Below the pieces are notes generated by a model that worked only from the letters and a program-made list of their open reading frames with translations, was not told the origin of the DNA and did not search any database. A stretch of DNA of 63,912 bases, the filler included, from an uncultured bacterium (GTDB lineage: Bacteria; DAOPZR01): the NCBI GenBank assembly GCA_964637655.1. It is 7 parts of 7 records of this genome, joined end to end, with 100 filler letters (N's around TTAATTAATTAA, not from the genome) between each part and the next. Parts side by side here need not be neighbours in the genome. Positions count along the whole stretch, not along the records: positions 36,878 to 45,842 come from CAZWUZ010000161.1; 6 more parts are not named here. The stretch is one strand, 5' to 3'. Each line of letters opens with the position of its first letter. Position 1 is the first letter of the stretch. Below, one piece after another: positions 7,296 through 54,989 of this stretch. Both the position numbers and the translations under genes were made by a program.

Positions 7296-8539
7296 TGTCG
7301 CGATCGTGGCTGATCCTGATGATGTACTGGTTCCCCAACGAGGGGGCGACCGGGTACATCGTGCGCGACATCGCGCGCGAACTGCGCCGGCGCGGGCATG
7401 CGGTGACCGTGCTCACCTCGCGTCTGCACCGCCGTCCGGGTCGCGACTGCGCCTGGCCGGCCGCGGTGGCGCAGCAACACCGTTTCACTGATGCTGACGG
7501 CATTGCCGTGCACTGTGTCCCGGTGCTGGCGCCGGCATGGCTGCTCGCGCGGAGCCCGAACCTGTACCGCGCATTGTCGTTTGCGACCTTCGCCCTGTCG
7601 GCGCTGCTGCGCCTGCTCACGGGCCCGGCTTTCGACCGCTGTCTGGTCACCAGTTCGCCGCCGTTCGCCGGTGTGCTCGCAGCCGTGCTGGCCGGCAGGT
7701 ACCGCGGGATGAAAGTATTCTACTCCATCCAGGATCTCTATCCCGATATCCTGCAGGCCGCCGGACTGGTGCGCGACCGCGGCCTGCTCGCGCTGCTGCA
7801 ACGGGTGGAAAACTTCTCGCTCGCCGGGGTGGAACGGGTACTGGCCATTACCCCGGGCATTCGCGACCTGGTTGCGCAGCGGGTGGCCAGACCGGAGAAG
7901 GTGGTGCTGGCACCCAACTTCGTCGATGCTGATGAGGTGCGTCAGGGTTCCCGGAATAACGCCCTGGCGCGCGAGCTGGGACTGGTCGACACCTTCAATC
8001 TCGTCTACTCAGGGAATATGCTTGCCTGCCACGGGTTGGAGTTCTTTGTCGCGGCGGCGGATGCGCTGCGGGCACAGGCGGATACCGGCAAGGTGCGCTG
8101 GGTATTTATCGGCTATGGCGAAGCGGCGGCGGCGCTTGCAGCGATGGTGCGGGAGCGCGGGCTTGCCGATATCGTCCGCTTCCTGCCGCTGCAACCGCGG
8201 GAGCGGGTGCATGAAATCTACGCGATGGCGGATGCGGGAATTGTCGGCTGTCCGGGAGACCTGTTCCGGCTGATGCTGCCGTCGAAGATCGCCAGCATCA
8301 TGGCGGCCGGCCGCCCCGTGCTGGCCTACTGCCAGCCGGAAAGCGAGATTGCCCGCATGCTGCGCGACAGCGGCGCCGGGCATGCGGTCAGCACCGCCGC
8401 CGAACTGTGCGCGGCCGTGGCGGCGCTTGCCGGGCGCCGGCACTGGCAGGAGTGTGCGGACCGCGCCCGGGCGTATGTCGAACAGCACCTGGCGCAGGCG
8501 CGGGTACTGCCCGCGCTGGTCGCACACCTCGAGGCATAG
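7295..8539 (+). CDS. GT4 glycosyltransferase (WbuB-like)
   Basis: TSSPPF, IQDLYPD, YSGNM, PSKIASIMAAGRPV. Confidence 0.88.
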
Positions 8540-9149: not shown

Positions 9150-9249
9150 NNNNNNNNNNNNNNNNNNNNNNNNNNNNNNNNNNNNNNNNNNNNTTAATTA
9201 ATTAANNNNNNNNNNNNNNNNNNNNNNNNNNNNNNNNNNNNNNNNNNNN
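9150..9249. other. Artificial contig linker
   Basis: N-run + TTAATTAATTAA + N-run, 100 nt. Confidence 0.98.
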
Positions 9250-10471: not shown

Positions 10472-10517
10472 TCTCCCGCGCACATGGCTCCGTNNNNNNN
10501 NNNGGCATACTGCGGGC

Positions 10518-18371: not shown

Positions 18372-18471
18372 NNNNNNNNNNNNNNNNNNNNNNNNNNNNN
18401 NNNNNNNNNNNNNNNTTAATTAATTAANNNNNNNNNNNNNNNNNNNNNNNNNNNNNNNNNNNNNNNNNNNN
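18372..18471. other. Artificial contig linker
   Basis: N/TTAATTAATTAA/N. Confidence 0.98.
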
Positions 18472-27586: not shown

Positions 27587-27686
27587 NNNNNNNNNNNNNN
27601 NNNNNNNNNNNNNNNNNNNNNNNNNNNNNNTTAATTAATTAANNNNNNNNNNNNNNNNNNNNNNNNNNNNNNNNNNNNNNNNNNNN
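27587..27686. other. Artificial contig linker
   Basis: N/TTAATTAATTAA/N. Confidence 0.98.
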
Positions 27687-36777: not shown

Positions 36778-36877
36778 NNNNNNNNNNNNNNNNNNNNNNN
36801 NNNNNNNNNNNNNNNNNNNNNTTAATTAATTAANNNNNNNNNNNNNNNNNNNNNNNNNNNNNNNNNNNNNNNNNNNN
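36778..36877. other. Artificial contig linker
   Basis: N/TTAATTAATTAA/N. Confidence 0.98.
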
Positions 36878-37360
36878 CAGGCGGATGATGATGCGCCCGG
36901 CGCGGCCGGCTCCGTCGCGGGCGCAGCGCGCGGCGATGGCCGCGCAGGCATGGTGCAGCAGGTAGATGACCATCTGGCGCAGGCGCAGCGGGTGACCGGA
37001 GACGCGGACCTCACGGGCCAGCGCCATGTCCATGTCGGTAGCGATGCCCCGGGCCGAGCAGTGCGGGGCCATGAGCAGGCAGGCGGCATCGACGATATCC
37101 GCCAGGCAGACCGCCTGCGGCGGTTCCTCCACCGCGCTCCGCGCGCTGCCGACAATCTCCTGCAGATGCGCCTGCTGCCGGGCCAGCGTGTCGAGCAGCC
37201 CGCGCAGCGCCGCATCCGCCTGCACCGACGGCTGCTGCTGCGCCGCCAGCAGCGTCGTCTGCATCACCGCCAGCGGCTGGTCGAAGGCCTGCAGCAGCTG
37301 CACCAGGCGCTGACGCTCATGGGTGATGCCGGCCGCCAGCGAGCGGGAAAAGATGTTCAC
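36878..37360 (-). CDS. Sensor-less, degenerate histidine-kinase-like protein (3' truncated)
   Basis: LAAGITHE H-box; LRQMVIYLLHHA is a degenerate N-box; GRIIIR; GTGA overlap with the CARF gene. Confidence 0.62.
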
Positions 37361-38418
37361 CGTTTTCCTCCCGCGCGCAGGCGGAGCTGCCGGGGCGGCA
37401 GTGCCAGCCCGTAGCAGCGGCGGCCATGCGTTCCCGTCGAAACGATGCGTGCCGGCGACTGCGTCGTGCCGGAGAGCAGGGCCAGTTTGCGGTTGATGCG
37501 CGAGATGTGCTCCCGCACCAGCGCGCTGCTGAAAACAAACCGCTTGAGCGGGAAGAGCTGCCGCCCGAGCGCGGCAAGCGCGACGTGGCCGGCAATTTCC
37601 TGTACCCGCAGCGGGTGCTGCCGGCGCTGCTGCGCAAAGAACGCGTACAGGGTGAGTTCCTTGGGCGTGAACGGGATAATCTTCCCCTCGAGCAGAGCGA
37701 GACGGCGTGCCAGGTCGATTTCGAGACGAATCCCCGTCGCGGCCTGCGCGAGGTCATGCAGCGTGCGGCTGGCCGCCACCGCGTTGTCAAAATCAGCGCC
37801 CACCGGCCGCCCGCTCCCCGTCAGCATGCCATTGAGGCGTACGTAGGGAATGGTCACCGCCGTCAACTGCGCACAGGCCTCCTCCGGGGTCAGAATGCGG
37901 CAGTCGCCGTCCTCGAGTGCGCGCGGCAGCACCAGCTGGAAAACCTCGTCATGGTCGCCATACTGCATCGCCGCCTGCACCTGCAGCAGCGAGAGGAGTT
38001 TTCGTCCGCCGGCGAGGCAGACATACACGCGTTCGCCGCGCTGCTTGCAGTCGCGGAAAGCGCGGAACACCGCGCGCTGCGCCAGTTCGAGCGTGTGCGC
38101 CGTGTCGATATCGGTGGCGGTCGCGGCCCCGTCGCGGATCTGGTTGATGACCAGCCGCGGCGCGCGACAGCCGTAGAGACGCGCCCAGCGCGCAAGTTCG
38201 CGCCGCCGCCGGAGGCGCTGCAGCGTTGCACGCCCCTGCGCGGTCTTGGTGATGACCACGCGGTCGAACAGCACAGGCGGCTGCACACAGGCGGCGTAGT
38301 AGCTGAGTGCCGCGGTGAGCGTATTCACTTGTCTGCCCAGGGCCAGCAACAGTACGGCGCGTTGCGAAACAGCCGGTCGTCTGCCGGCTGCTCCCTGTTT
38401 CGCGCTATCGGTTTTCAT
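37357..38418 (-). CDS. CARF domain protein of NE0113/ring-nuclease type with C-terminal winged HTH
   Basis: DRVVIT, DIDT, VYVCLAGGRKLLS, IPYVRL; tail LEIDL..FTPKELTLYAFF..HISRINRKL..YGL. Confidence 0.82.
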   Translation of the reverse strand: MKTDSAKQGAAGRRPAVSQRAVLLLALGRQVNTLTAALSYYAACVQPPVLFDRVVITKTAQGRATLQRLRRRRELARWARLYGCRAPRLVINQIRDGAATATDIDTAHTLELAQRAVFRAFRDCKQRGERVYVCLAGGRKLLSLLQVQAAMQYGDHDEVFQLVLPRALEDGDCRILTPEEACAQLTAVTIPYVRLNGMLTGSGRPVGADFDNAVAASRTLHDLAQAATGIRLEIDLARRLALLEGKIIPFTPKELTLYAFFAQQRRQHPLRVQEIAGHVALAALGRQLFPLKRFVFSSALVREHISRINRKLALLSGTTQSPARIVSTGTHGRRCYGLALPPRQLRLRAGGKR

Positions 38419-38424
38419 GCTGAA

Positions 38425-38491
38425 ATGGTAACTGAGCTCCTCAGCAAATGCAAATTTCACAATATTGTGACGGTGTGTAACCTAAGTTACA
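38425..38491 (-). promoter_or_regulatory. Leaderless sigma70 promoter with two upstream palindromic operator candidates
   Basis: TTGCAT-17-TACCAT-6-ATG; TCACAATATTGTGA (38457-38470) and TGTAAC-N4-GTTACA (38476-38491). Confidence 0.7.
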
Positions 38492-38522
38492 TTCGACATA
38501 TCATCAGGCATGACAGGGCATT

Positions 38523-38554
38523 AAAAGCGCAGGGCGGCATATCCCGCCCTGCGC
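38523..38554 (-). terminator. Intrinsic terminator downstream of the AraC gene
   Basis: GCGCAGGGCGG-6-CCGCCCTGCGC followed by TTTT on the minus strand. Confidence 0.75.
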
Positions 38555-38566
38555 GCTACCGGTTGG

Positions 38567-39538
38567 CTACAGCGGTTTGACCGGAATGCAGATATCCATG
38601 ACGAAGATCGGGTTGCCCTCTGTATCCTGCTGCGTGCCGCATTCCGGCGCGTACTGCTCGTAGCCGGGCCCGTCGGCACACTGCCAGCCGCTTTGCGGGA
38701 ACCATTCGGCAAAGAGCCAGTGATACGCATCCTTGATCTGCGCGGGGGTGCAAGTGACGCGGCAGACGGCATACTGCCCGCCCTTGAGTTCCTGGATGCT
38801 GATCTCCCCTTCGGGTTTCACGTCCGGCCCGACGGTGACCCCCGCATCGTAGCGGAGTTTCGCTGACGGGGTGATTTCCGGATCGTCATGCGAGATGCCC
38901 AGCGTCTGCCCGCTCTGCAACAGGCCGCGCGGCCCCGCCCAGCGGCAGAGCCGGTCCCACACCCTGCTGATACTGCTGTGCTCATACGGCCCGATATGCC
39001 GCAGGTACGCCACGCGATACCCGGGCAATTCCTTCACTGCGACGTCCCCCTTCACCTGCTGTTGTGCCATGTTCTGCTTCCCCTTTCTGATGGTTGCGCC
39101 GGCGTCTGCCGTGCTGCTCCCATCATAGCGCGGGGAAGGCGCAGATGCTTTGCGCTCCTTGCGCTCCGCTTTGCACTCCTTGCGCTCCGTTTTGCCATTA
39201 TTGCGCCAGGCGGTGGCCGACACGCCGAAGTGGCGGCGGAATTCGCGGGCGAAGACCGCCGACGAGGAAAAGCCGCAGTCGAGGGCGATGGCGGTGATGC
39301 TCGCGTCGCGGTTGGCGCGGAGTTTCCCCGCGGCGCGTTCGAGACGCAGGCGGCGGATGCAGGCGAAGAGTGATTCATCCATCAGTTCAGCAAAAAGACG
39401 TGAGAAGTGGCAGGGCGAGAAGGCGGCTACCTTCGCCAGTTCGTCAAGCGTGAAAGTGCGGTCAGGATGCGCACTGATGTAGTCGAGCACGCGGTTGATG
39501 CGCCCGGTATACTCGCGCCGCGCCGCCTGCGGATTCAT
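38567..39538 (-). CDS. AraC family regulator with GyrI-like effector domain
   Basis: RINRVLDYI, FSPCHFSRLF, IALDCGFSS; VAYLRHIGPY, DDPEIT, LRYDAG. Confidence 0.92.
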   Translation of the reverse strand: MNPQAARREYTGRINRVLDYISAHPDRTFTLDELAKVAAFSPCHFSRLFAELMDESLFACIRRLRLERAAGKLRANRDASITAIALDCGFSSSAVFAREFRRHFGVSATAWRNNGKTERKECKAERKERKASAPSPRYDGSSTADAGATIRKGKQNMAQQQVKGDVAVKELPGYRVAYLRHIGPYEHSSISRVWDRLCRWAGPRGLLQSGQTLGISHDDPEITPSAKLRYDAGVTVGPDVKPEGEISIQELKGGQYAVCRVTCTPAQIKDAYHWLFAEWFPQSGWQCADGPGYEQYAPECGTQQDTEGNPIFVMDICIPVKPL

Positions 39539-39942
39539 GGCTCACCATGGCGGCGCAGGAAAATGACGTAGGCGCGGTCCTTGCGCTCGATATGCTGCAG
39601 CAGCCAGTCACGCAGATACTGCAGCAGGGTGACCCCCATGACGGGGCGGTTGTGCTGCCAGTCGTCCTGCCGTGCCGCGAGGTAGGCACTGAACGCCGCA
39701 TGTTCCTGCTCCTGCGCGACGAGCGCGGGATAGCCGTGGCGGCGCAGCAGTTCCTCTTCCGCGGCGAAGTGGCTGCGCGCGTACTCCTGCAGCCGCGTCA
39801 GCACCGTCGTCAGCACGCTCTGGCTGTCGCCCGCGGTCAGCGCCGCGTGCAGGTCGTTGATGATGGTGCCGAGCTGCCGGTGCTGCGCATCCATCGCCGC
39901 GATACCGATATCCCAGCCGTCCTGCCAGTCGAGATACGCCAT
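39535..39942 (-). CDS. Bacteriohemerythrin
   Basis: IGIAAMDAQHRQL, HFAAEE, EH..F, WLLQHI..D. Confidence 0.92.
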   Translation of the reverse strand: MAYLDWQDGWDIGIAAMDAQHRQLGTIINDLHAALTAGDSQSVLTTVLTRLQEYARSHFAAEEELLRRHGYPALVAQEQEHAAFSAYLAARQDDWQHNRPVMGVTLLQYLRDWLLQHIERKDRAYVIFLRRHGEP

Positions 39943-39943
39943 C

Positions 39944-40324
39944 TCAGCCGCACCCGTCGAAAAACATGCCTTCGCCCTTGTCGATATGGTCGAGCCAGCG
40001 CTGCAGGTCGTCATGGGTGATGTTCTTCTGCTGCAGGTCGGCGATCTTCCCGTCAGGCCCGAGCCGGACGAGGTCGATAATCAGTTCGTTCCCTTCGCGG
40101 TGGACACAGAAGCGGTAGGGTGAGCCGGCGGCGACGAGACGGCGATGCGCGTTGGCCAGCGCGGCGGTCAGTTCGGCGAAATGGTCGCCCGCCAGTTCCG
40201 GGGCGCTTTGCGGCGGCGTGTAGCGCCGCTGGCCGCCACCTTCGCGGTCGCCGGGGCGCTCCACCGCCGCCGGCGCCCCGATGTTCTCCACGCGCATGCG
40301 GCGCGGGTCGAAATTTTCGTCCAT
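39944..40324 (-). CDS. Hypothetical protein (possibly FlaG-like C-terminus)
   Basis: Coupled within the operon (TGATG overlap); 126 aa. Confidence 0.6.
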   Translation of the reverse strand: MDENFDPRRMRVENIGAPAAVERPGDREGGGQRRYTPPQSAPELAGDHFAELTAALANAHRRLVAAGSPYRFCVHREGNELIIDLVRLGPDGKIADLQQKNITHDDLQRWLDHIDKGEGMFFDGCG

Positions 40325-40752
40325 CAGAGCGGCATGCCGAAGAGCCAGCAGTCCTCGCCCCCCCACTGCTGCCGGAGACGGAATTCTTCGGTGAACCCCG
40401 CGGCGCGGTAGAACCCCTCGGCACGATAGCGGGTCAGTCACCAGCACCAGAGGTTCTTCGCGCCATGCTCGCCCGCCCAGGCGCGGGCGAACGAACCGAG
40501 GGCGGGCCCCGTCCCGGGCCGGCGCGAGACGACGGTGAGAATCTCGCAGGATGCTTCACGCAGGTCGAGCGCGATGAGCCCGGCAGGCACCCCCGCGCTG
40601 AGCGCGAGGAAGTATTTCCCGGCACGCACCCACTCGTCAACTTCCGCCTCGATGGCGTAGGTGAACTGCGGGGTGTCGAGCGCGCGCAGCAGTTCGCAGA
40701 GCACGGGAATATGCTCCGCGGCAGCGGGGATAATGGTCAGCGGCGCACTCAC
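40324..40752 (-). pseudogene. GNAT acetyltransferase with an internal in-frame TGA (40438-40440)
   Basis: RRPGTGPAL..KNLWCW*LTRYRAEGFYRAAGF..; both ends overlap neighbouring start/stop codons. Confidence 0.75.
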
Positions 40753-41969
40753 AACACGCACCTCCGGATGCGCGCGGCCAGTCCACCCGTCGCCGTCTCG
40801 CGGTACTTGCTCTGCAGATCGTGACCTGTCTGCGCGAGTACCGCCACCGCATCATCGAAGGAAACACAATGCCGCCCGTCGGAAAGCATCGCGTAGACCG
40901 CGCAGTCGAGTGCGCGCGAGGCAGCCATGGCGTTGCGCTCGATGCAGGGAATCTGCACATAGCCGCCGACCGGGTCGCAGGTCAGCCCGAGATGGTGCTC
41001 CAGCCCCATCTCCGCCGCGTATTCCACCTGCGACGGCGAGCCGCCGAGCAGTTGCGTCGCCGCGGCTGCCGCCATGGCGCAGGCGCTGCCGACTTCACCC
41101 TGACAACCGACCTCGGCCCCGGAAATGGAGGCGTTGTGCTTGATGAGGTTGCCGATGAGTCCGGCGGTAGCCAGCGCGCGCGTGATCTTAGCCGTCGAGA
41201 AACGGTAGTCTTCCTGCAGCAGTTTGAGCACCGCTGGCAGCACCCCGGCGGCGCCGCACGTCGGGGCGGTGACGACCTCGCCGCCGGCCGCATTCTCCTC
41301 GGAGACCGCCAGCGCATAGGCAAAGCGCAGTGCGATGCGCGTGGTCGCTCCGTCCGACTGCCGTGCTTTCATGTAGTAGTCAGAGGCCTTGCGCTGCAGG
41401 CGCAGGTCGCCCGGGAGCAGTCCTTCCGCTTCGAGCCCGCGTTCGAGACAGCGGCGCATGGCACGCCAGATGTCAGCCAGGAATTCCTCGAGCCCTTCGC
41501 CTTCATGCTGCGCCACGTATTCCCAGAGCGTCTGCCCCGAGTCCTGCAGCGCCGTGAGAATGGCCTTCATCGAGGTGTGCGGGTAGACCGGGGCGGGAAC
41601 GGGCAGGGTGCCGTCATCGTCGCGCAGCGCTCCGCCGCCGGGCGAATAGACGGTCCAGCTGCCGAGGTCGGTGCCGGCGTCAGCGTGCGCGGCAAAGCGC
41701 ATGCCGTTGGGATGCCCGGGCAGCGCTTCACCCGGATGCCAGCGCACGTCACACGGCAGCGGGGCGAGGGCGCCGCTGAGGGCACGGTCGGTGAGATGCC
41801 CGCGCCCGGTGAGCGCCAGCGACCCGAAGAGGTCGACGGTGAAGCGCGCCGCCTGCGGGTGGCGCGCGCGGAAGATGGCAGCGGCGCGCGACGGGCCGAT
41901 GGTATGGCTCGACGAGGGGCCCACCCCGATGCGGTACAGTTCGCGCAGTGAGTGCATGCCCTGTTCCAT
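40749..41969 (-). CDS. sdaA: L-serine dehydratase (Fe-S, single chain)
   Basis: IGVGPSSSHTIGP, GSLALTGRGHLTD, VVTAPTCGAAG, SISGAEVGCQGEVG, LGLTCDPV..VQIPCIERN. Confidence 0.95.
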   Translation of the reverse strand: MEQGMHSLRELYRIGVGPSSSHTIGPSRAAAIFRARHPQAARFTVDLFGSLALTGRGHLTDRALSGALAPLPCDVRWHPGEALPGHPNGMRFAAHADAGTDLGSWTVYSPGGGALRDDDGTLPVPAPVYPHTSMKAILTALQDSGQTLWEYVAQHEGEGLEEFLADIWRAMRRCLERGLEAEGLLPGDLRLQRKASDYYMKARQSDGATTRIALRFAYALAVSEENAAGGEVVTAPTCGAAGVLPAVLKLLQEDYRFSTAKITRALATAGLIGNLIKHNASISGAEVGCQGEVGSACAMAAAAATQLLGGSPSQVEYAAEMGLEHHLGLTCDPVGGYVQIPCIERNAMAASRALDCAVYAMLSDGRHCVSFDDAVAVLAQTGHDLQSKYRETATGGLAARIRRCVL

Positions 41970-41976
41970 GCCGCCG

Positions 41977-42042
41977 ATTATCGGCTATCCGCGCAGTTCT
42001 GTCAAACGCCTGCTTGACCTGTTCCTCTGCCGGTGGTATCAT
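41977..42042. promoter_or_regulatory. Back-to-back sigma70 promoters (sdaA operon and TA operon)
   Basis: Minus strand: TTGACA-17-GATAAT-7-ATG; plus strand: TTGACC-17-TATCAT. Confidence 0.72.
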
Positions 42043-42051
42043 CGCCCCAGG

Positions 42052-42157
42052 GCAAGTATTCAGCCACCCTCACCCTTCCCTCTCCCGCCGCAGGCGGGAG
42101 AGGGTGGTTGCCTTCCCCCTCTGCGAGGGGGAAGGTTGGATGAGGGTGAATAGTTGC
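42052..42157. repeat. MITE/REP-like element with ~14-bp terminal inverted repeats
   Basis: GCAAGTATTCAGCC ... GGGTGAATAGTTGC enclosing CCCTCTCCC hairpins. Confidence 0.75.
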
Positions 42158-42173
42158 GTTTCAGGAGGTCTCC

Positions 42174-42404
42174 ATGTTGCCGTTTACGCGCATTACCAGT
42201 GACCCGGCAGTCATGGGCGGTCGCCCGTGCATACGGGGTCAGCGGATTACTGTCGGTACGGTTATCGGCCTGCTTGCTGCCGGGCATAGCGCGGCACACG
42301 TTCTTGAATTGTACCCGTACCTCGAGCAGGGCGACATTGACGAGGCCCTCCGCTATGCCGCGTGGCGCGCCGAGGAACAGGACATCCCGCTCGCTTCAGC
42401 GTGA
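42174..42404 (+). CDS. DUF433 antitoxin
   Basis: RITSDPAVMGGRPCIRGQRITV..YPYLE..DIDEALRYAA. Confidence 0.93.
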   Translation: MLPFTRITSDPAVMGGRPCIRGQRITVGTVIGLLAAGHSAAHVLELYPYLEQGDIDEALRYAAWRAEEQDIPLASA

Positions 42405-42784
42405 AACTGCTGGTTGATGTCTGTCTTTCACCGCAGTGGGTTCCCGCCCTGCTGCAACACGGCTATACCGCCATTCACTGGTCTACCGTGGGGCAGCGTA
42501 CTGCTCCTGATGCGGTGCTCACCGCCTGGGCACGCGCGCACGACCATATCGTTCTGACTCACGATCTTGATTTCGGGGCACTGCTGGCCGCCTGTTCCTG
42601 GAATTCCCCTTCCGTGCTCATCCTCCGCTGTGCCGATGTCAGTCCCGCCGGTTCGCTATCTCTCGTGCTGGCAACCCTGCAGTCAACTGCGGAGTTTCTG
42701 CGACGCGGTGCGCTGATAAGCATCGACGAACACCGTTCCCGCGTACGCGTTTTGCCCATTTTCCGTCAGGAGGACATGCCATGA
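42401..42784 (+). CDS. DUF5615 PIN-like toxin
   Basis: KLLVDVCLSP, APD, IVLTHDLDFG, RVRVLPI. Confidence 0.9.
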   Translation: MKLLVDVCLSPQWVPALLQHGYTAIHWSTVGQRTAPDAVLTAWARAHDHIVLTHDLDFGALLAACSWNSPSVLILRCADVSPAGSLSLVLATLQSTAEFLRRGALISIDEHRSRVRVLPIFRQEDMP

Positions 42785-43026
42785 CCTACACCCTGTTGCT
42801 CATCAAGGTGGCACAGCGCGAACAGGCCGCGCGACGCGTGCAGGAGCTGCTCACGCAGTTCGGCTGCAGCATCAAGGTGCGGCTCGGACTGCACGAGTCG
42901 CCGGCCGGCAGTTGCTCGCCGTGCGGGCTGATTGTCCTGCACATGGAGTGCGGCAGCGAGTGCGAGCAGCTGCTCGCCGCGCTCAAGGCCGAGCTCGGCG
43001 TCACCGCCCAGCTCCTCACCATCTGA
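42781..43026 (+). CDS. ACT-like small protein (TM1266 / iron-only hydrogenase regulator-like)
   Basis: R..AARRVQELLTQFGCSIKVRLGLHE...GLIVL. Confidence 0.72.
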   Translation: MTYTLLLIKVAQREQAARRVQELLTQFGCSIKVRLGLHESPAGSCSPCGLIVLHMECGSECEQLLAALKAELGVTAQLLTI

Positions 43027-43153
43027 AAAGGGGACAGACAAGAAAAGGGGACACACACTTTCAGCACAGCAATGCCCGTTGCTGACCGGAAAGTGTGTGT
43101 CCCCTTTTCTGAAAGTGTGTGTCCCCTTTTCTGAAAGTGTGTGTCCCCTTTTC
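43025..43153. repeat. GAAAAGGGGACACACAC repeat cluster: two units inverted against three tandem 22-bp units
   Basis: GAAAGTGTGTGTCCCCTTTTCT x3 (about 43089-43153); reverse complement at 43025-43063. Confidence 0.88.
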
Positions 43154-43155
43154 GG

Positions 43156-44145
43156 TTAGCGGGGGAGGGGGCGCAGCGGACGCAGGGGGCGGCGCAGCGG
43201 CGGGGTGTCGCCGCGCTGCTGATGCTGCGTGCGCAGTTCCTGCAGGCGGGCGGCGCGGGTATCGGCCACTGCTGCCCGGCGTGCCTGCAGCGCCTCACGG
43301 CGGGCCGCGATGCTGTCGGCAACAGCCGCGCGCAGGGCGGCACGACTGTCGGCAAACTCCGCCCGGCGGGTCGCAATGGTATCAGCAGCATCCGCCCGGC
43401 GCTGACGCAGCAGTTCACGCCGCTGCTGCAGATGCTGCACGATGCGCTGGCGGCGCGCTTCCGGCAACTGCCGCAGCACCGTGCGCAGCGACGAGGTGTC
43501 GGTTTCCGGGGAAAGGTTGTAGCGCTGCACAAGGCGCTCCGTCAGCCGGCTGCGCATTTCCTGCCAGCGTTCGCGCCGTTCCTGCCGCACTTCCGCAAGT
43601 TTGAGCCGGCGCCGTTCGATGCGGGCGGCGCGATCGGCCGTCAGCGGCTTCGTCTCGCTGCCATTGCCGGCCACCACCTCGCCCGAAAAGACCTCAACCT
43701 GTGTCGCCTCGCCGTCCACTTCCACGGCAAAATCGGTGCCGCGCACCCCGGCGGTGGCGGCAGCCGTGCGCACGGTGAACCGCTTGCCCGCGGCGGGGGG
43801 AACTTCAAGGCGGATGCCCCCCTGTTCGAGGGCGACAATGATGTGCCAGTACCCCGCCTGCGTATCAGCCCGCTCAACGGTAAAGCGTGCGCCCTCAGTC
43901 ATCTCCAGCATGGTTCCGTCAGGCAGGGTGTAGTCACCCGGTTCGCCACCGCTGTCGACCGCCTGTTGCAGCGGCACCACCGGGGCAACCTCCTGCAGCG
44001 ATATTTCTGCCGGTAGTGCTGCTGTCGTCGTGACAGCGGGTTGCGGTGCTACGGCATGCTCCTGACGGCCACACCCCGCTGTCGCCATCAGCACGAGAGA
44101 AATCACGGCAACGATAAGGAAACGGTTATGCACTTGAAGCTTCAC
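43156..44145 (-). CDS. FecR-domain lipoprotein with helical, Arg-rich C-terminus
   Basis: Lipobox TAGC; LPDGT, FTVRT..ATAGVRGTDFAV, VEVFSGEV. Confidence 0.8.
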   Translation of the reverse strand: MKLQVHNRFLIVAVISLVLMATAGCGRQEHAVAPQPAVTTTAALPAEISLQEVAPVVPLQQAVDSGGEPGDYTLPDGTMLEMTEGARFTVERADTQAGYWHIIVALEQGGIRLEVPPAAGKRFTVRTAAATAGVRGTDFAVEVDGEATQVEVFSGEVVAGNGSETKPLTADRAARIERRRLKLAEVRQERRERWQEMRSRLTERLVQRYNLSPETDTSSLRTVLRQLPEARRQRIVQHLQQRRELLRQRRADAADTIATRRAEFADSRAALRAAVADSIAARREALQARRAAVADTRAARLQELRTQHQQRGDTPPLRRPLRPLRPLPR

Positions 44146-44146
44146 C

Positions 44147-44773
44147 TCACCACCCCTGTGCGACCTTTTCCGCTGCGCTGATGGAGGCGGCAATAGCCGC
44201 CTCGCGTCCCGCGTCATCGTTGGCGTCCATCGGCTGCACACTGATGAAATCGATGTCACGGAACCCGGCAAACCCGAACACCGTACTCAGGTAGGGAATG
44301 ATGTTATCCATGCCGCGGGCAGGGGAATCAGGACCGTAATCGCCGCCGCGGGCGCTGATCACCGCCAGTTTGCGTCCCGTCACCATCCCCTCTGGCCCCT
44401 TCTCTGTGTAACGGAACAGGTAGCCGGGCTGCCAGACGATATCGATGTAGTTCTTCAGGACGTAGGGGATGCTGAAATTCCACATCGGGGTGCTGACGAG
44501 GATGGCGTCAGCCGTCGTGAAACGGCTGATTTCCTCCTCCACCTGTTTCCAGACCGGCTGCAGTTCGGGCGGGATGTTCTTCCCGCCCATCAGGAAATAC
44601 TTGCCGGCCACCGTCTGCTGCGTGACCGACGGGGCGGGATCGGTGAACAGGTTGCGCTCGTCTATGGTCAGGCCGGGATGCTTCTCCCGCAGGGCGGCAA
44701 GGAAACGGGCACTGACGCGCAGGGTGCGCGACGCGCTGCCGCGCGGGGTGGCAATCAGGTGCAGGAGTTTCAT
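44147..44773 (-). CDS. azoR: FMN-dependent NADH-azoreductase
   Basis: ATPRG..SRT, PMWNFSIPYVLKNYID, FRYTEKGPEG, ARGGDY. Confidence 0.92.
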   Translation of the reverse strand: MKLLHLIATPRGSASRTLRVSARFLAALREKHPGLTIDERNLFTDPAPSVTQQTVAGKYFLMGGKNIPPELQPVWKQVEEEISRFTTADAILVSTPMWNFSIPYVLKNYIDIVWQPGYLFRYTEKGPEGMVTGRKLAVISARGGDYGPDSPARGMDNIIPYLSTVFGFAGFRDIDFISVQPMDANDDAGREAAIAASISAAEKVAQGW

Positions 44774-44829
44774 CGGCGTATCCTCCGGAAGCGTGCTGCG
44801 GCGAGGATACCGCCTTCACTGCCTCCGTG

Positions 44830-45840
44830 TCAAACCGCGCGGCGCTGCGCGGTGTCCACTGCCTGCCAGACGCGTTCCGCCACACGCCCGATGAACTCCT
44901 TGGCCACCCAGTAGGACGGGAAGTCGCGGGTGAGCACCGCGACGATGACCGTGCGGTCGCGGAAATAGAGCGTGCCGACATCGTGCACCACGTTGTACAT
45001 CAACCCGGTCTTGTGGGCGATGGGCACCCCCTCAGGGATGAAGCGCGGCAGGCGGTCACGCAGCTTGCAGCGCAGCAGGTGGCCACGCATCTGCTCGCAG
45101 TAGTCGTTGCCGATCAGTTCGCCGCGCTCGAGTTTTTCGAGGAATTCGCCCATGTCGCGCGCGGTGGTCAGGTTCTCGACGCCGCGGTCGCGCGCCGCGA
45201 GGTCCATGACGTCGCGAATCATGTCGGTGCGGTAGAGTCCGAATTCGCGGCAGGCGCGGTTGACGCGATCCATGCCGACGGCATCGACCAGCACGTTGGT
45301 CGCGGTATTGTCACTGACCGTGATCATCTGTTCGAGCAGGTTGCGCACCGTGTCGGTCTGCCCCGTCGGAACGCCCGCCGTCGGCCCGCAGCCGCTTACC
45401 TTGTGGCGTTCGAGCACCGCCAGCGGCGTTTCGAGGGTCAGCCGGCCGGCAGCGATATCGCGGTAGACCAGCCCCATCACCGGGAGTTTGACCAACGAGG
45501 CGCTCGGCATCTGCACGTTTTCCCGGTAACTGATGACGCGGCCGCTGCGCAGGTCCTTGAGGTAATAGGCGACGGGATACGCCTGCATGTTGGCCAGCGC
45601 CTGCAGGTCGCGCTCTGCGAGGTCCCAGCGGGGCACCTGCGCGTCGGTGTCAACCGGGCGCTCATGCCCGCCGCGCAGCGCGGTCGGCAGCACGGCCCGC
45701 GCGACCACGACTTCCTCGTCTGCGGCGGCGCTGGTCAGCCCCCACGGCAGCGGCTGCAGTTGCAGGACGACAATGCTCAGGCCGACCGCCAAAGTCAGCC
45801 ACGGCAGCGTGCGGCGACGCAGCAGGAAGGAAAGCAGCAT
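44830..45840 (-). CDS. Class A beta-lactamase-like serine hydrolase (Beta-lactamase2/PBP-A type)
   Basis: SASLVK (SxxK), SDNTATN, HKTG, HDVG. Confidence 0.85.
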   Translation of the reverse strand: MLLSFLLRRRTLPWLTLAVGLSIVVLQLQPLPWGLTSAAADEEVVVARAVLPTALRGGHERPVDTDAQVPRWDLAERDLQALANMQAYPVAYYLKDLRSGRVISYRENVQMPSASLVKLPVMGLVYRDIAAGRLTLETPLAVLERHKVSGCGPTAGVPTGQTDTVRNLLEQMITVSDNTATNVLVDAVGMDRVNRACREFGLYRTDMIRDVMDLAARDRGVENLTTARDMGEFLEKLERGELIGNDYCEQMRGHLLRCKLRDRLPRFIPEGVPIAHKTGLMYNVVHDVGTLYFRDRTVIVAVLTRDFPSYWVAKEFIGRVAERVWQAVDTAQRRAV

Positions 45841-45842
45841 AA

Positions 45843-45942
45843 NNNNNNNNNNNNNNNNNNNNNNNNNNNNNNNNNNNNNNNNNNNNTTAATTAATTAANN
45901 NNNNNNNNNNNNNNNNNNNNNNNNNNNNNNNNNNNNNNNNNN
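45843..45942. other. Artificial contig linker
   Basis: N/TTAATTAATTAA/N. Confidence 0.98.
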
Positions 45943-47764: not shown

Positions 47765-49027
47765 TCATGATGCCGCGGCCGCCACGCACAGTTGCGGCCG
47801 GCGCTTCTCCACGCCCTGATAGGGCGCGAGCAGCGCCACCGTCTGCTGACGCGGCAGGATAACGGTGAATACGGAGCCCTGCCCGGGCGCGCTGACCACG
47901 GTGATCCGCCCGTGCTGGCGGCTGACGAGCGCCGCCGCGATGCTCAGCCCGATGCCCAGACCGCCGGCAGCGCCCCCTTCCGGCTGGTCAACCTGATAAA
48001 ACTGTTCGAAGATGTGCCGCTGGTTGGCCGCGCTGATACCCGGCCCGCTGTCGCGGACGTGGAATTGCACTTCCGTCGGGTTGGCAGCGGCGCTGATGGT
48101 GACCGTGCCACCGGGCGGCGTGAACTTGATCGCGTTGTCAGCGATATTGGTCAGGACCTGGAGCAGTTGCCGGCGATCGCCATACACGGCCACCGCGCTC
48201 CCTTCGCAGCGCAGCGTAATCTCCCGTTCCCGGGCCTTGCCGCGCAGCAGTTCGCCGACCTCTTCGCTCAACCCGTCGGCGGGAAAGGTGTCGTAATTGA
48301 GGGGCAGACCCCGGCGGTCGGTGTTGGCGAGTTGCTGCAGGTTGTCGATCACCGCGAACTGGAGATCGATGTTGTCCAGCATCACGCCGCACTGCTCGCG
48401 CTGCAGCGGTGACACCGGGCCCGACTGGCCGGCGCTGATCATTCTGGCATAGCCGCGCACCGCAATCAGGGGGGTGCGCAATTCATGCGCGATGTTCGCG
48501 AGCAGGTTGTTGTTCATGCCATCGCGCGCGCGCAGGCGGATGTTCGCCGTTTCCATCTCCTTGAGTTGCGTTTCCAGTTTGCAGATCAGCGTCTCATTGT
48601 AGCGCCTGAGGCATACCGGGTCGGGGGTCACGCCGGGCCTGGTCCGCGCCGGCCGCCCCCCCTCCGCCAGCAGTTGCTGCACCGTCGCCACGATCACTTC
48701 GGGTGGTGCCGGCACGGTGATGAACCGGTCGGCGCCCGAACTCATGGCCAGTTGCCGGTCCTTGTCGTCCGTGTATGAGGCGGTGAGGAAAATGAACGGT
48801 ATCCTGCCCAGCATCGGGTCCTGCCGCCATTGCCGGCAGAGCATAAACCCGTCCATCACCGGCATCAGGATGTCGGAGATGACCAGGTCGGGCGGGCGGG
48901 CCAGGGCCACGGTCAGCGCTTCGGCCCCGTTCATCGCGGTGAGCACGGTGTACCCGGCATTCTCGAGGATCGTCTTGAGCAGGCACCGGTTCTCCGCCAA
49001 GTCATCAACAATCAACACACTATGCAT
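47765..49027 (-). CDS. Hybrid receiver-histidine kinase
   Basis: LIVDD, SDILMPVMDG; AHELRTPL, NIADNAIKFT, DSGPGI, GLGIGL. Confidence 0.92.
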   Translation of the reverse strand: MHSVLIVDDLAENRCLLKTILENAGYTVLTAMNGAEALTVALARPPDLVISDILMPVMDGFMLCRQWRQDPMLGRIPFIFLTASYTDDKDRQLAMSSGADRFITVPAPPEVIVATVQQLLAEGGRPARTRPGVTPDPVCLRRYNETLICKLETQLKEMETANIRLRARDGMNNNLLANIAHELRTPLIAVRGYARMISAGQSGPVSPLQREQCGVMLDNIDLQFAVIDNLQQLANTDRRGLPLNYDTFPADGLSEEVGELLRGKAREREITLRCEGSAVAVYGDRRQLLQVLTNIADNAIKFTPPGGTVTISAAANPTEVQFHVRDSGPGISAANQRHIFEQFYQVDQPEGGAAGGLGIGLSIAAALVSRQHGRITVVSAPGQGSVFTVILPRQQTVALLAPYQGVEKRRPQLCVAAAAS

Positions 49028-49155
49028 GGTTGCCACTACGCTCCTGACCCTGGCCGGGCAGTATACCGCCCTGCCGACACCTATCGTGCGCCTGACAGCT
49101 CATGACGAGGAGTGGCGGCAGCCGCGTGACGCGGCTTTCATCCGCAGCGGACTGC

Positions 49156-54889: not shown

Positions 54890-54989
54890 NNNNNNNNNNN
54901 NNNNNNNNNNNNNNNNNNNNNNNNNNNNNNNNNTTAATTAATTAANNNNNNNNNNNNNNNNNNNNNNNNNNNNNNNNNNNNNNNNNNNN
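54890..54989. other. Artificial contig linker
   Basis: N/TTAATTAATTAA/N. Confidence 0.98.

Follow-up and report, generated by a model that had tools for sequence, protein, structure and literature searches.

A CARF–winged-helix protein outside visible CRISPR loci, encoded beside a histidine-kinase-derived neighbour: a predicted one-component transcription factor of the NE0113/Cad1 clade

CARF domains are the receptors of the second messengers of type III CRISPR systems, and nearly all studied examples lie inside CRISPR loci. In two-component pairs of the OmpR/PhoB type such as ompR-envZ, the gene of the response regulator comes first, and that of the histidine kinase follows with an overlap. 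Among proteins that derive from kinases but are none, NifL binds and inhibits NifA, and Spo0B and ChpT are phosphotransferases with a domain like the catalytic and ATP-binding (CA) domain of kinases that binds no ATP. Here, we describe a gene in a 63,912-base stretch of DNA (the window), a chain of contigs from the metagenome-assembled genome (MAG) of an uncultured bacterium, which encodes a 353-amino-acid (aa) protein with a CARF domain and a winged-helix (wHTH) domain. As an earlier note on this DNA had claimed from the sequence, the gene stands outside any visible cas context and overlaps a histidine-kinase-like open reading frame (ORF). The safest description of its product is that of a predicted one-component transcription factor: a member of the NE0113/Cad1 clade that has diverged, is orphaned from CRISPR, and carries an OmpR-type DNA-binding output. 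Our preferred reading goes further and, in our estimate, has an even chance of being right: a CRISPR-orphaned, ligand-gated CARF-wHTH transcription factor with a non-catalytic kinase-derived partner.

The closest described proteins are the CARF-wHTH proteins of the NE0113 family (PF09623; TIGR02584; CARF5--CARF), which have the same two-domain architecture at a length of ca. 340-420 aa and share with the window protein an invariant AGGRK motif (motif II) as well as the C-terminal blocks LxPxE..Y..FA and S.INR. PF09623 matches all 25 aligned members including the window protein. However, the window protein is only 18-27% identical to the family, has no PQVVTET sequence in motif I, lacks the typical cas neighbours (found within 8 kb at 83/91 loci of relatives, i.e., 80 + 11 loci), and is alone in having a kinase-like gene downstream. 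Among solved structures, Cad1 (PDB 9c68, 9ofc, and 8z3k) is the best match to the N-terminal domain; excerpts of PMC12669630 place its CARF domain in the same “CARF5” clade, and the lysine corresponding to TaqCad1 K106 is kept. Cad1 carries a deaminase domain, whereas the window protein has none, uses a DNA-binding domain as effector, and differs in motif I. Csa3 (PDB 6wxq and 2wte), which binds cyclic tetra-adenylate (cA4) and is tied to type I-A/III loci in excerpts of PMC8844856 and PMC8699464, shares the logic of a CARF sensor with a winged-helix output and no enzymatic effector, and both of its domains match (Z 11.7). Yet it belongs to a different CARF clade with another domain arrangement (root-mean-square deviation, rmsd, of 13.6 Å over the whole chain), and the wHTH domain of the window protein is closer to the OmpR/PhoB type with its N-terminal beta-sheet than to that of Csa3. 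The ring nucleases Crn1/Sso2081 and Sis0455 have the CARF fold in common with our protein (Z 13.5), and their Gly-Arg-Lys and the equivalent of Asp75 are kept, but Thr10-Ser11 and Glu17 of Sso2081 are replaced by R29-Q30 and A36, and the window protein also carries a DNA-binding domain.

When the two genes are compared with OmpR/PhoB pairs, the gene order, the start/stop overlap, the OmpR-type DNA-binding domain, and a second gene with the His-Glu of a dimerization and histidine phosphotransfer (DHp) domain are the same. Unlike in those pairs, a CARF domain stands in the place of the receiver, with no evident phospho-acceptor Asp pocket, and the kinase-like protein lacks both a sensor and the N-box asparagines. 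Our literature search, which did not extend to a 2020 CARF classification paper that possibly lists non-CRISPR CARF5 members, found no description of a CARF protein paired with a kinase. The stand-alone state of a CARF protein as such is not new because of a passage of Makarova et al.; what is new here is the motif pattern of this lineage together with the kinase-like partner. The features that carry the argument are as follows.

37357..38418, minus strand: CARF-wHTH gene, 353 aa; ATG start as in the close homologues P0002 and P0003, with a GTG 14 codons upstream also open
37849..38361, minus strand: CARF domain, residues ~20-190, from the PF09623 match, structural matches, and alignments
37393..37731, minus strand: OmpR/PhoB-type winged-helix DNA-binding domain, residues ~230-342, from structural and profile matches
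36878..37360, minus strand: histidine-kinase-like ORF with the DHp helices and the start of the CA domain, 161 aa seen, cut by the contig end
37367..37371, minus strand: Shine-Dalgarno sequence GGAGG within the end of the CARF gene, 6 nucleotides (nt) before the GTG of the kinase-like ORF

According to Pfam, PADLOC, and fold matches, the protein joins a genuine CARF domain of the NE0113/Cad1 type (“CARF5”) to a DNA-binding winged helix. The CLAGGRK motif that the earlier note had pointed out lies at residues 134-140 of ORF 37357-38418 (minus strand), and a search with hidden Markov models (HMMs) matched PF09623 (Cas_NE0113) over residues 54-184 with an E-value of 3e-13 and 50.5 bits against a cut-off of 23. 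This is the only Pfam family of the protein, and the top PADLOC model was CARF5--CARF (8.2e-17), followed by Csx1 and CARF3 models. The more specific NCBIfam models were not reached, with 13.3 bits (cut-off 80.65) for TIGR02584, an equivalog named “CRISPR-associated ring nuclease Csm6”, and 17.1 bits (cut-off 90.35) for Csx14. An AlphaFold2 model built with 25 aligned relatives had a mean predicted local distance difference test score (pLDDT) of 85.0 and a predicted template modelling score (pTM) of 0.66. In a Foldseek search of the PDB, its 11 top matches were all Cad1, followed by Csm6, Sis0455, Sso2081, Cam1, Csa3, and Can2. A structural search of the model against representatives separated two domains, residues ~18-209 and 230-342, of which the first aligned with Cad1-CARF over 160/161 residues (Z 15.4, rmsd 2.7 Å) and also matched Sso2081 (Z 13.5) as well as VC1899, Csm6, Can2, and Card1 (Z 11-13). 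The N-terminal half of the protein coupled to the kinase-like ORF is thus a CARF domain and not a receiver domain.

The C-terminal winged helix proposed in the earlier note is real and can be assigned more precisely to the OmpR/PhoB type. Among the 50 entries listed by the structural search, 21 aligned to residues 230-342 alone, and these were all OmpR/PhoB-family DNA-binding domains (among them GlnR, AdeR, PrrA, VanR, CadC, RitR, VicR, PhoP, KdpE, CpxR, OmpR, CssR, VbrR, PmrA, ToxR, and ArlR) that were covered nearly whole, with Z 7.3-9.4 and rmsd 2.2-3.4 Å over 82-99 residues. The order of secondary structure elements that DSSP finds in the model, an N-terminal beta-sheet, three helices, and a C-terminal hairpin wing, fits this fold. 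A profile of the family alignment gave weak hits at profile positions ~206-265 to the chains of 3q9s (E 3e-4), KdpE (1.4e-3), and MtrA (6.4e-3). The OmpR-type assignment rests on the predicted fold and these profile hits, and the relationship is remote. From the modelled fold, the DNA-binding half of the whole NE0113 family is predicted to be of the OmpR/PhoB type, and its members would therefore resemble response regulators in which a CARF domain replaces the receiver domain.

Within the CARF domain, the alignment of 25 relatives shows G28, T59, G137, G138, R139, K140, and D157 to be invariant, so that motif II (G138-R139-K140) is kept in 25/25 sequences. K140 aligns with K106 of TaqCad1 in an HMM alignment, R139 and K140 are equivalent to Arg105 and Lys106 of Sso2081, and D103 (in TDIDT) occupies the D-I-R-T position of the family, equivalent to Asp75 of Sso2081. 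In the excerpts of PMC12669630, cA4 binding and cleavage are lost in TaqCad1 K106A. For Sso2081, with motif I Gly9-Thr10-Ser11 and motif II Gly104-Arg105-Lys106, the excerpted parts of PMC10018336 describe that Arg105Ala abolishes cA4 binding, that Asp75 contributes strongly to binding, that Ser11Ala severely reduces cleavage, and that Glu17 reads adenine. The first CARF strand-loop (motif I), already suspected to be diverged, indeed is: it reads G28-R29-Q30-V31-N32-T33-L34-T35-A36-A37 where relatives have G-L-T-P-Q-V-V-T-E-T. Four of these residues (G, P, Q, and E) do not vary in 16/16 cas-linked relatives, and the window protein retains the G alone. Motif I is degenerate in the relatives P0010, P0014, P0044, P0048, and P0059 as well. 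The position of Sso2081 Ser11 is taken by Q30; since Ser11Ala cuts cleavage in Sso2081, ring-nuclease activity is doubtful for the window protein. More generally, the loss of the Ser/Thr, Pro, Gln, and Glu of motif I makes a ring nuclease unlikely, and the ligand may no longer be cA4 or cyclic hexa-adenylate (cA6). Judged from sequence, the pattern of kept and lost residues argues for a domain that would retain the phosphate contacts, would have lost the ring-nuclease chemistry, and perhaps reads a different base.

Downstream, the TGA of the CARF gene (37357-37359) overlaps the GTG (37358-37360) of the kinase-like ORF in the stop/start arrangement (GTGA) that the earlier note had described. 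The ORF has the GC content of a real gene of this genome at the three codon positions (0.776, 0.478, and 0.913). An in-frame stop lies ~132 codons upstream of its GTG, with no ATG, GTG, or TTG in between, so that an N-terminal sensor or membrane segment cannot be encoded. We compared the ORF with a profile of 44 DHp-CA cores from kinases of the same genome, which had been collected by phmmer from the kinase gene at window positions 47765-49036. Over positions 10-140 of the 232-position profile it scored 34.9 bits (E 6e-13 for a single sequence), while the best of 501 controls (the reversed sequence and 500 shuffles) reached 11.3 bits. The proposed H-box AAGITHE falls on the H-box of the histidine kinases, with AGITHE on the profile agvaHEl and H14-E15 on its H-E, though the R/K-T/N-P-L that should follow is not kept. 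Further on, LRLRQMVIYLLHHA aligns with arlrqvllNLldNA, and the N-box (LRQMVIYLLHHA) has YLLHHA in place of NLldNA, i.e., a Y and an H stand in the places of the two asparagines. Another 17 residues past this N-box, the contig ends. The neighbour of the CARF gene thus does derive from a kinase, and those of its catalytic motifs that can be seen are degenerate; “sensor-less pseudo-kinase” is a fitting label as far as the N-terminus and the N-box are concerned, while the C-terminal end lies beyond the contig.

Other searches with this ORF placed it in the same broad neighbourhood or gave nothing. A feature search of the ESM Atlas found its nearest clusters at 0.96-0.98, seven of them HisKA and two HisKA + HATPase_c. 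The best NCBIfam match was the NifL model with an E-value of 4e-4 and 19 bits over positions 284-406 of 494, far below the cut-off of 242 bits, and RppB followed at 0.01, likewise far below its cut-off. No Pfam family (HisKA included) matched at E <= 1, PADLOC gave no match, and a sequence search of the PDB found no relative, only one chance-level match. AlphaFold2 modelled the fragment alone at a pLDDT of 51.9, with just two long N-terminal helices at 61-69, and a complex prediction that combined the CARF-wHTH alignment with the kinase-like fragment scored 0.00; run without controls, it is evidence neither way. By analogy, the partner might play a role like that of NifL, Spo0B, or ChpT, with which it would share a DHp-like helical hairpin and a degenerate CA-like region and no ATP-driven autophosphorylation would be expected. 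The fragment differs from NifL in having no PAS domains, and the protein beside it is neither of the NifA type nor a receiver-domain protein.

How unusual this arrangement is became clear from the loci of relatives. We searched one genome per species for the pattern PQV[VIL]TET[LVM][YW], which gave at least 602 stretches of which 594 were confirmed, and used the best 80 loci. Their 897 ORFs (simple greedy caller) were clustered by BLASTP, and from each of the 28 largest clusters one representative was compared with Pfam. Cas6, RAMPs, Cmr2- and Csm1-type Cas10, Cmr3, Cmr5, Csm2, Csm6, Cad1, Card1, Cas1, and Cas2 were common neighbours; a cluster of a cas family lay within 8 kb in 73/80 of these best loci and Cas10 in 47/80, and among the 34 of them that spanned at least 15 kb the counts were 32 and 27. 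When 400 further genomes were searched with a profile, 20 had matches, of which 11 were full-length. Within ±8 kb, cas neighbours were present at 10 of these 11 loci (the exception being a 3-kb contig), and motif I was canonical at all of them. The family from which the window protein would descend thus normally sits in type III CRISPR-Cas loci; the lineage described here has diverged strongly and would have left that context. The survey also turned up recurrent companions of canonical CARF-wHTH genes in type III loci that may be uncharacterized accessory genes: a 322-aa cluster in 11 loci and a 421-aa cluster in nine, both without a Pfam family, and a DUF2130 protein cluster in nine (representatives L054:953-1921, L016:9242-10507, and L049:4777-6159). 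Genes for Cad1-type CARF-adenosine-deaminases (~710 aa) directly adjoin the CARF-wHTH gene in 7/80 loci (L076:5234-7369, L016, L050, L057, L058, and L069 among them), so that CARF5 receptors often co-occur.

These counts speak for viewing our gene as an ordinary accessory regulator of a type III system that senses a Cas10-made cyclic oligoadenylate, with the cas operon or Cas10 lying past the contig end or in an unbinned contig. Beyond the CARF gene, the contig runs for another 483 nt downstream before it ends, and the MAG (3,985,905 bases in 485 contigs) is 90.55% complete with 3.64% contamination. Across these 3.99 Mb, however, a family search found no match to Cas1 (PF01867), Csm1 (TIGR02578), Cmr2 (TIGR02577), or RAMP (PF03787), although each of these searches gave matches in control genomes. 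For Cas10, nothing above the cut-off was found either, with only one 19-bit match to the palm2 domain on a contig that also carries a kinase. PF09623 itself matched no other gene of the genome. A k-mer scan for spaced repeats found no CRISPR array-like repeat: it reported seven sites, and the five listed were plain tandem repeats. These tandem repeats have ~50-73 nt units in 3-4 near-perfect copies without variable spacers, some with hairpin-like internal palindromes (C130:7180-7420, C49:12500-12760, C36:14370-14560, C163:4230-4400, and C3:1-230 and ~7300-7510). The 7.4 kb upstream hold only unrelated genes, and the gene downstream is kinase-like, as at none of the 91 loci of relatives. Moreover, motif I residues that are invariant in cas-linked relatives are lost, and the protein sits on a long isolated branch. 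We consider it quite improbable that this is a type III accessory regulator. A cas operon beyond the contig end is unlikely from the genome-wide searches, though not from the contig itself.

The search for a cyclase that the earlier note had suggested did find a CBASS-like pair (anti-phage signalling based on cyclic oligonucleotides) on another contig, C9, where a patatin phospholipase gene (PF01734, 8.5e-30) is followed by an overlapping gene for a DncV-like/SMODS nucleotidyltransferase (PF21654, 7.5e-14; L007:480-2502). The nucleotidyltransferase scored 26.0 bits for PF18144 in the protein scan (cut-off 26.5) and 27.6 bits in the genome search. The pair appears to be more AT-rich than the rest of the genome. 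With the ligand-contacting GGRK retained, the CARF domain could sense the product of such a cyclase, or another cyclic nucleotide, and pass the signal to transcription with the kinase-like protein as co-regulator in a CRISPR-independent pathway. But the CBASS-like pair has its own effector, nothing connects the two loci, and motif I as well as the adenine-reading Glu (Sso2081 Glu17) are lost. In addition, no CBASS is known to use a CARF-wHTH receptor, though no search was aimed at this. We judge this scenario to be very unlikely.

Close relatives of the CARF-wHTH protein are rare. A word-indexed search of 5.8 billion proteins (E <= 1e-3) returned seven proteins including itself: P0002 and P0003 with 80-81% identity, each a single sequence on Logan contigs of 9412 and 1546 bp, respectively, and four others with 24-28% identity. 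When 1.84 billion representatives were searched in full with HMMER, 54 proteins reached E <= 1e-3 and just three E <= 1e-10, namely P0002, P0009 (30% identity), and the repetitive protein P0008. The latter, a large repeat protein of 5048 aa, aligns 55 times with one 30-residue segment of the query (positions 184-214). A scan of metagenomes with the CARF-wHTH protein gave no match, one with P0009 found just one 1016-bp contig, and a plasmid collection yielded no match. Only one genome of the same family exists among 199,900 species genomes, all other relatives sharing no more than the domain; the lineage is therefore sparsely sampled, and the one same-family genome has no homologue of the gene. 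For a quick maximum-likelihood tree, we used 74 rows: the complete set of hits with 300-450 aa, full-length proteins of the cas-linked loci (every third one), and the 11 from the genome sample. The tree united the window protein, P0002, and P0003, which all lack motif I and retain motif II, in a clade with 100% support in the Shimodaira-Hasegawa-like approximate likelihood ratio test (SH-aLRT) on a stem of 1.65 changes per column, with a path of 3.45 to the nearest other row. P0044, P0048, and P0059 grouped loosely with it, a placement flagged as a possible case of long-branch attraction.

Parts of the stretch occur in six sequencing runs from three studies of wastewater, sludge, and landfill metagenomes, with no RNA run on record among them. 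Runs X1 and X2 contain short perfect-match pieces, two of which reach 233 and 200 nt beyond the contig end at 36878. In run X5, two 151-nt contigs cover the kinase-like ORF with six and four differences, and a 617-nt contig of run X6 covers 37343-37848 with 40 differences. The kinase-like sequence is therefore present in at least one other study, in pieces too short to span the gene pair. Within the MAG, the first 150 nt of the contig had no stretch longer than ~18 nt in common with any other contig end. An orphan CA-domain end on contig C226 had been considered as the continuation of the cut kinase-like gene but was rejected, as it fits the end of contig C479 instead; the kinase gene at the C479 end (…RLTVSD) and the CA fragment of C226 (DTGIGIP…) appear to be halves of one gene split by the assembly.

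The region upstream of the CARF gene contains further elements that may bear on its expression.

38457..38470, no strand: perfect 14-bp palindrome TCACAATATTGTGA, candidate operator, 39-52 nt upstream of the ATG
38476..38491, no strand: palindrome TGTAAC-N4-GTTACA, candidate operator, 58-73 nt upstream of the ATG
38527..38554, minus strand: intrinsic-terminator-like hairpin (inverted repeat I1) that ends the AraC/GyrI-like gene 38567-39538

The hairpin, whose 11-bp stem includes 10 G-C pairs and which has a loop of 6 nt and ends in TTTT, bears out the claim that a terminator separates the pair from the upstream operon; its folding energy is -29.4 kcal/mol for a 50-nt stretch. TGTAAC-N4-GTTACA has a single match in the window against a mean of 0.06 in shuffled sequence, a post hoc figure for a motif picked by eye, and TCACAATATTGTGA, likewise picked post hoc, has a single match in the window at up to two mismatches. 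The only near copy of the latter in the genome (one mismatch; C321:2263) lies just after a histidine kinase gene and may be there by chance. Because both palindromes were picked by eye, they are candidate operators only.

The gene pair lies on the 8965-bp contig C161 (window 36878-45842), so that window position 36878 is the end of a contig and not of a gene. Since the window joins separate contigs (spacers N44-TTAATTAATTAA-N44 at 9150-9249, 18372-18471, 27587-27686, 36778-36877, 45843-45942, and 54890-54989, with extra N runs of 10 and 100 bases at 10494, 17068, and 58946), gene neighbourhoods cannot be read across the spacers. Within the contig, the absence of cas genes from the 7.4 kb upstream was upheld: of 11 ORFs scanned, eight have non-cas Pfam families and three have none. 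They encode an AraC/GyrI-like regulator, a hemerythrin, two family-less ORFs, an L-serine dehydratase, a DUF433/DUF5615 pair, an 81-aa ORF, a FecR-domain protein, a flavodoxin-like reductase, and a class A beta-lactamase-like protein. The DUF433 gene (76 aa) overlaps the DUF5615 gene (140 aa, PIN-like) at 42174-42784 on the plus strand, and pairs of this type are usually read as toxin-antitoxin modules.

For the transcription factor with a kinase-derived partner that we prefer, the following picture emerges. The protein probably dimerizes through its CARF domain and, to judge from the conserved residues, probably still binds a nucleotide-type ligand via GGRK (R139 and K140) and D103. Once a ligand is bound, the protein's binding to DNA would be altered, possibly at the two palindromes that lie upstream of its start. 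The CARF gene would be co-transcribed and translationally coupled with that of the short cytoplasmic kinase-derived protein, which has no sensor and keeps the phospho-acceptor His-Glu but has lost both N-box asparagines that hold Mg-ATP. This partner would most likely be non-catalytic, not an ATP-driven kinase but a subunit for binding or regulation or an adaptor for phosphotransfer, and the two proteins may contact each other. The gene order and overlap mimic an operon of response regulator and kinase, which makes a functional tie attractive but leaves it unproven. In a bolder version, which we regard as rather unlikely, the CARF domain replaced the receiver of an OmpR-type pair, and the kinase-derived partner, not driven by ATP, docks on the regulator or is controlled by it, so that a nucleotide messenger not made by Cas10 is linked to transcriptional control of the two-component style. 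If true, this would be a CRISPR-independent signalling module assembled from parts of defence and two-component systems.

Several points weigh against an orphaned, ligand-gated regulator with a non-catalytic partner. The pairing is not a property of the family, as a kinase adjoins the CARF gene at 0/91 loci of relatives; the outcome that the earlier note had named as a refutation, a pairing not conserved elsewhere, thus holds for the wider family, and the adjacency could be recent or accidental. By the kinase profile, the 897 neighbour ORFs include a single kinase, an ordinary one that lies 6 kb from the CARF gene on the opposite strand. The collection of 5.8 billion proteins holds no relatives of the kinase-like fragment at 88-282 aa or 283-2000 aa, nor the fragment itself, though cut genes may be missing there. 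Its conservation is shown solely by the two 151-nt contigs (four and six differences) of one other study. Past the 161 aa seen, the protein may well continue into an intact ATP lid (G1/G2), a sensor at its C-terminus, or another domain fused to it, and the His at the N-box position might still hold metal. Pfam Trans_reg_C matched 0/25 family members at E <= 1. The promoter that the pair was said to have of its own did not materialize in a sigma-70 scan (0 sites in 36878-40200); a candidate TTGCAT-17-TACCAT (8/12), spotted by eye, that ends 6 nt before the ATG was rejected as too weak and would imply a nearly leaderless mRNA. Close to the CARF-wHTH gene, no source of a ligand was identified. 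Finally, CRISPR loci are often lost from bins, so that in a MAG of this completeness and fragmentation the absence of cas genes is not proven.

An alternative is an accident of adjacency, in which a decaying or ordinary kinase gene came to lie beside the CARF gene with no functional tie, and the CARF-wHTH gene may itself be a decaying relic. No other family member has such a neighbour, kinases abound in the genome (69 HATPase_c matches), the catalytic motifs are degenerate, and no relatives of the fragment were found. Set against this, the 4-nt overlap comes with a properly spaced consensus GGAGG, the two open frames have a strong coding-type GC content at third codon positions (GC3; 0.805 for the CARF-wHTH gene and 0.913), the CARF protein recurs at ~80% identity on two further metagenomic contigs, where its stop lies at the same position, and the kinase-like stretch recurs in another study with 4-6 differences per 151 nt. 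An accident seems unlikely to us. What the earlier note had observed is thus confirmed in part, with the terminator, the domains, and the coupled genes standing and the promoter falling, and its interpretation is partly supported. In the assembled sequence, the domain identities, the motif states, and the gene coupling are plain to see, as is the lack of cas genes.

If our preferred reading is true, the orphan CARF-wHTH protein, with its context and cleavage-type motif lost, its ligand-contact motif kept, and a kinase-derived partner gained, would illustrate how sensors of bacterial defence are re-used for ordinary gene regulation, and it would offer a handle for finding ligands of CARF domains that are not made by Cas10. 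The OmpR/PhoB fold predicted across the NE0113 family would moreover provide a concrete model for its uncharacterized cas-linked members, too.

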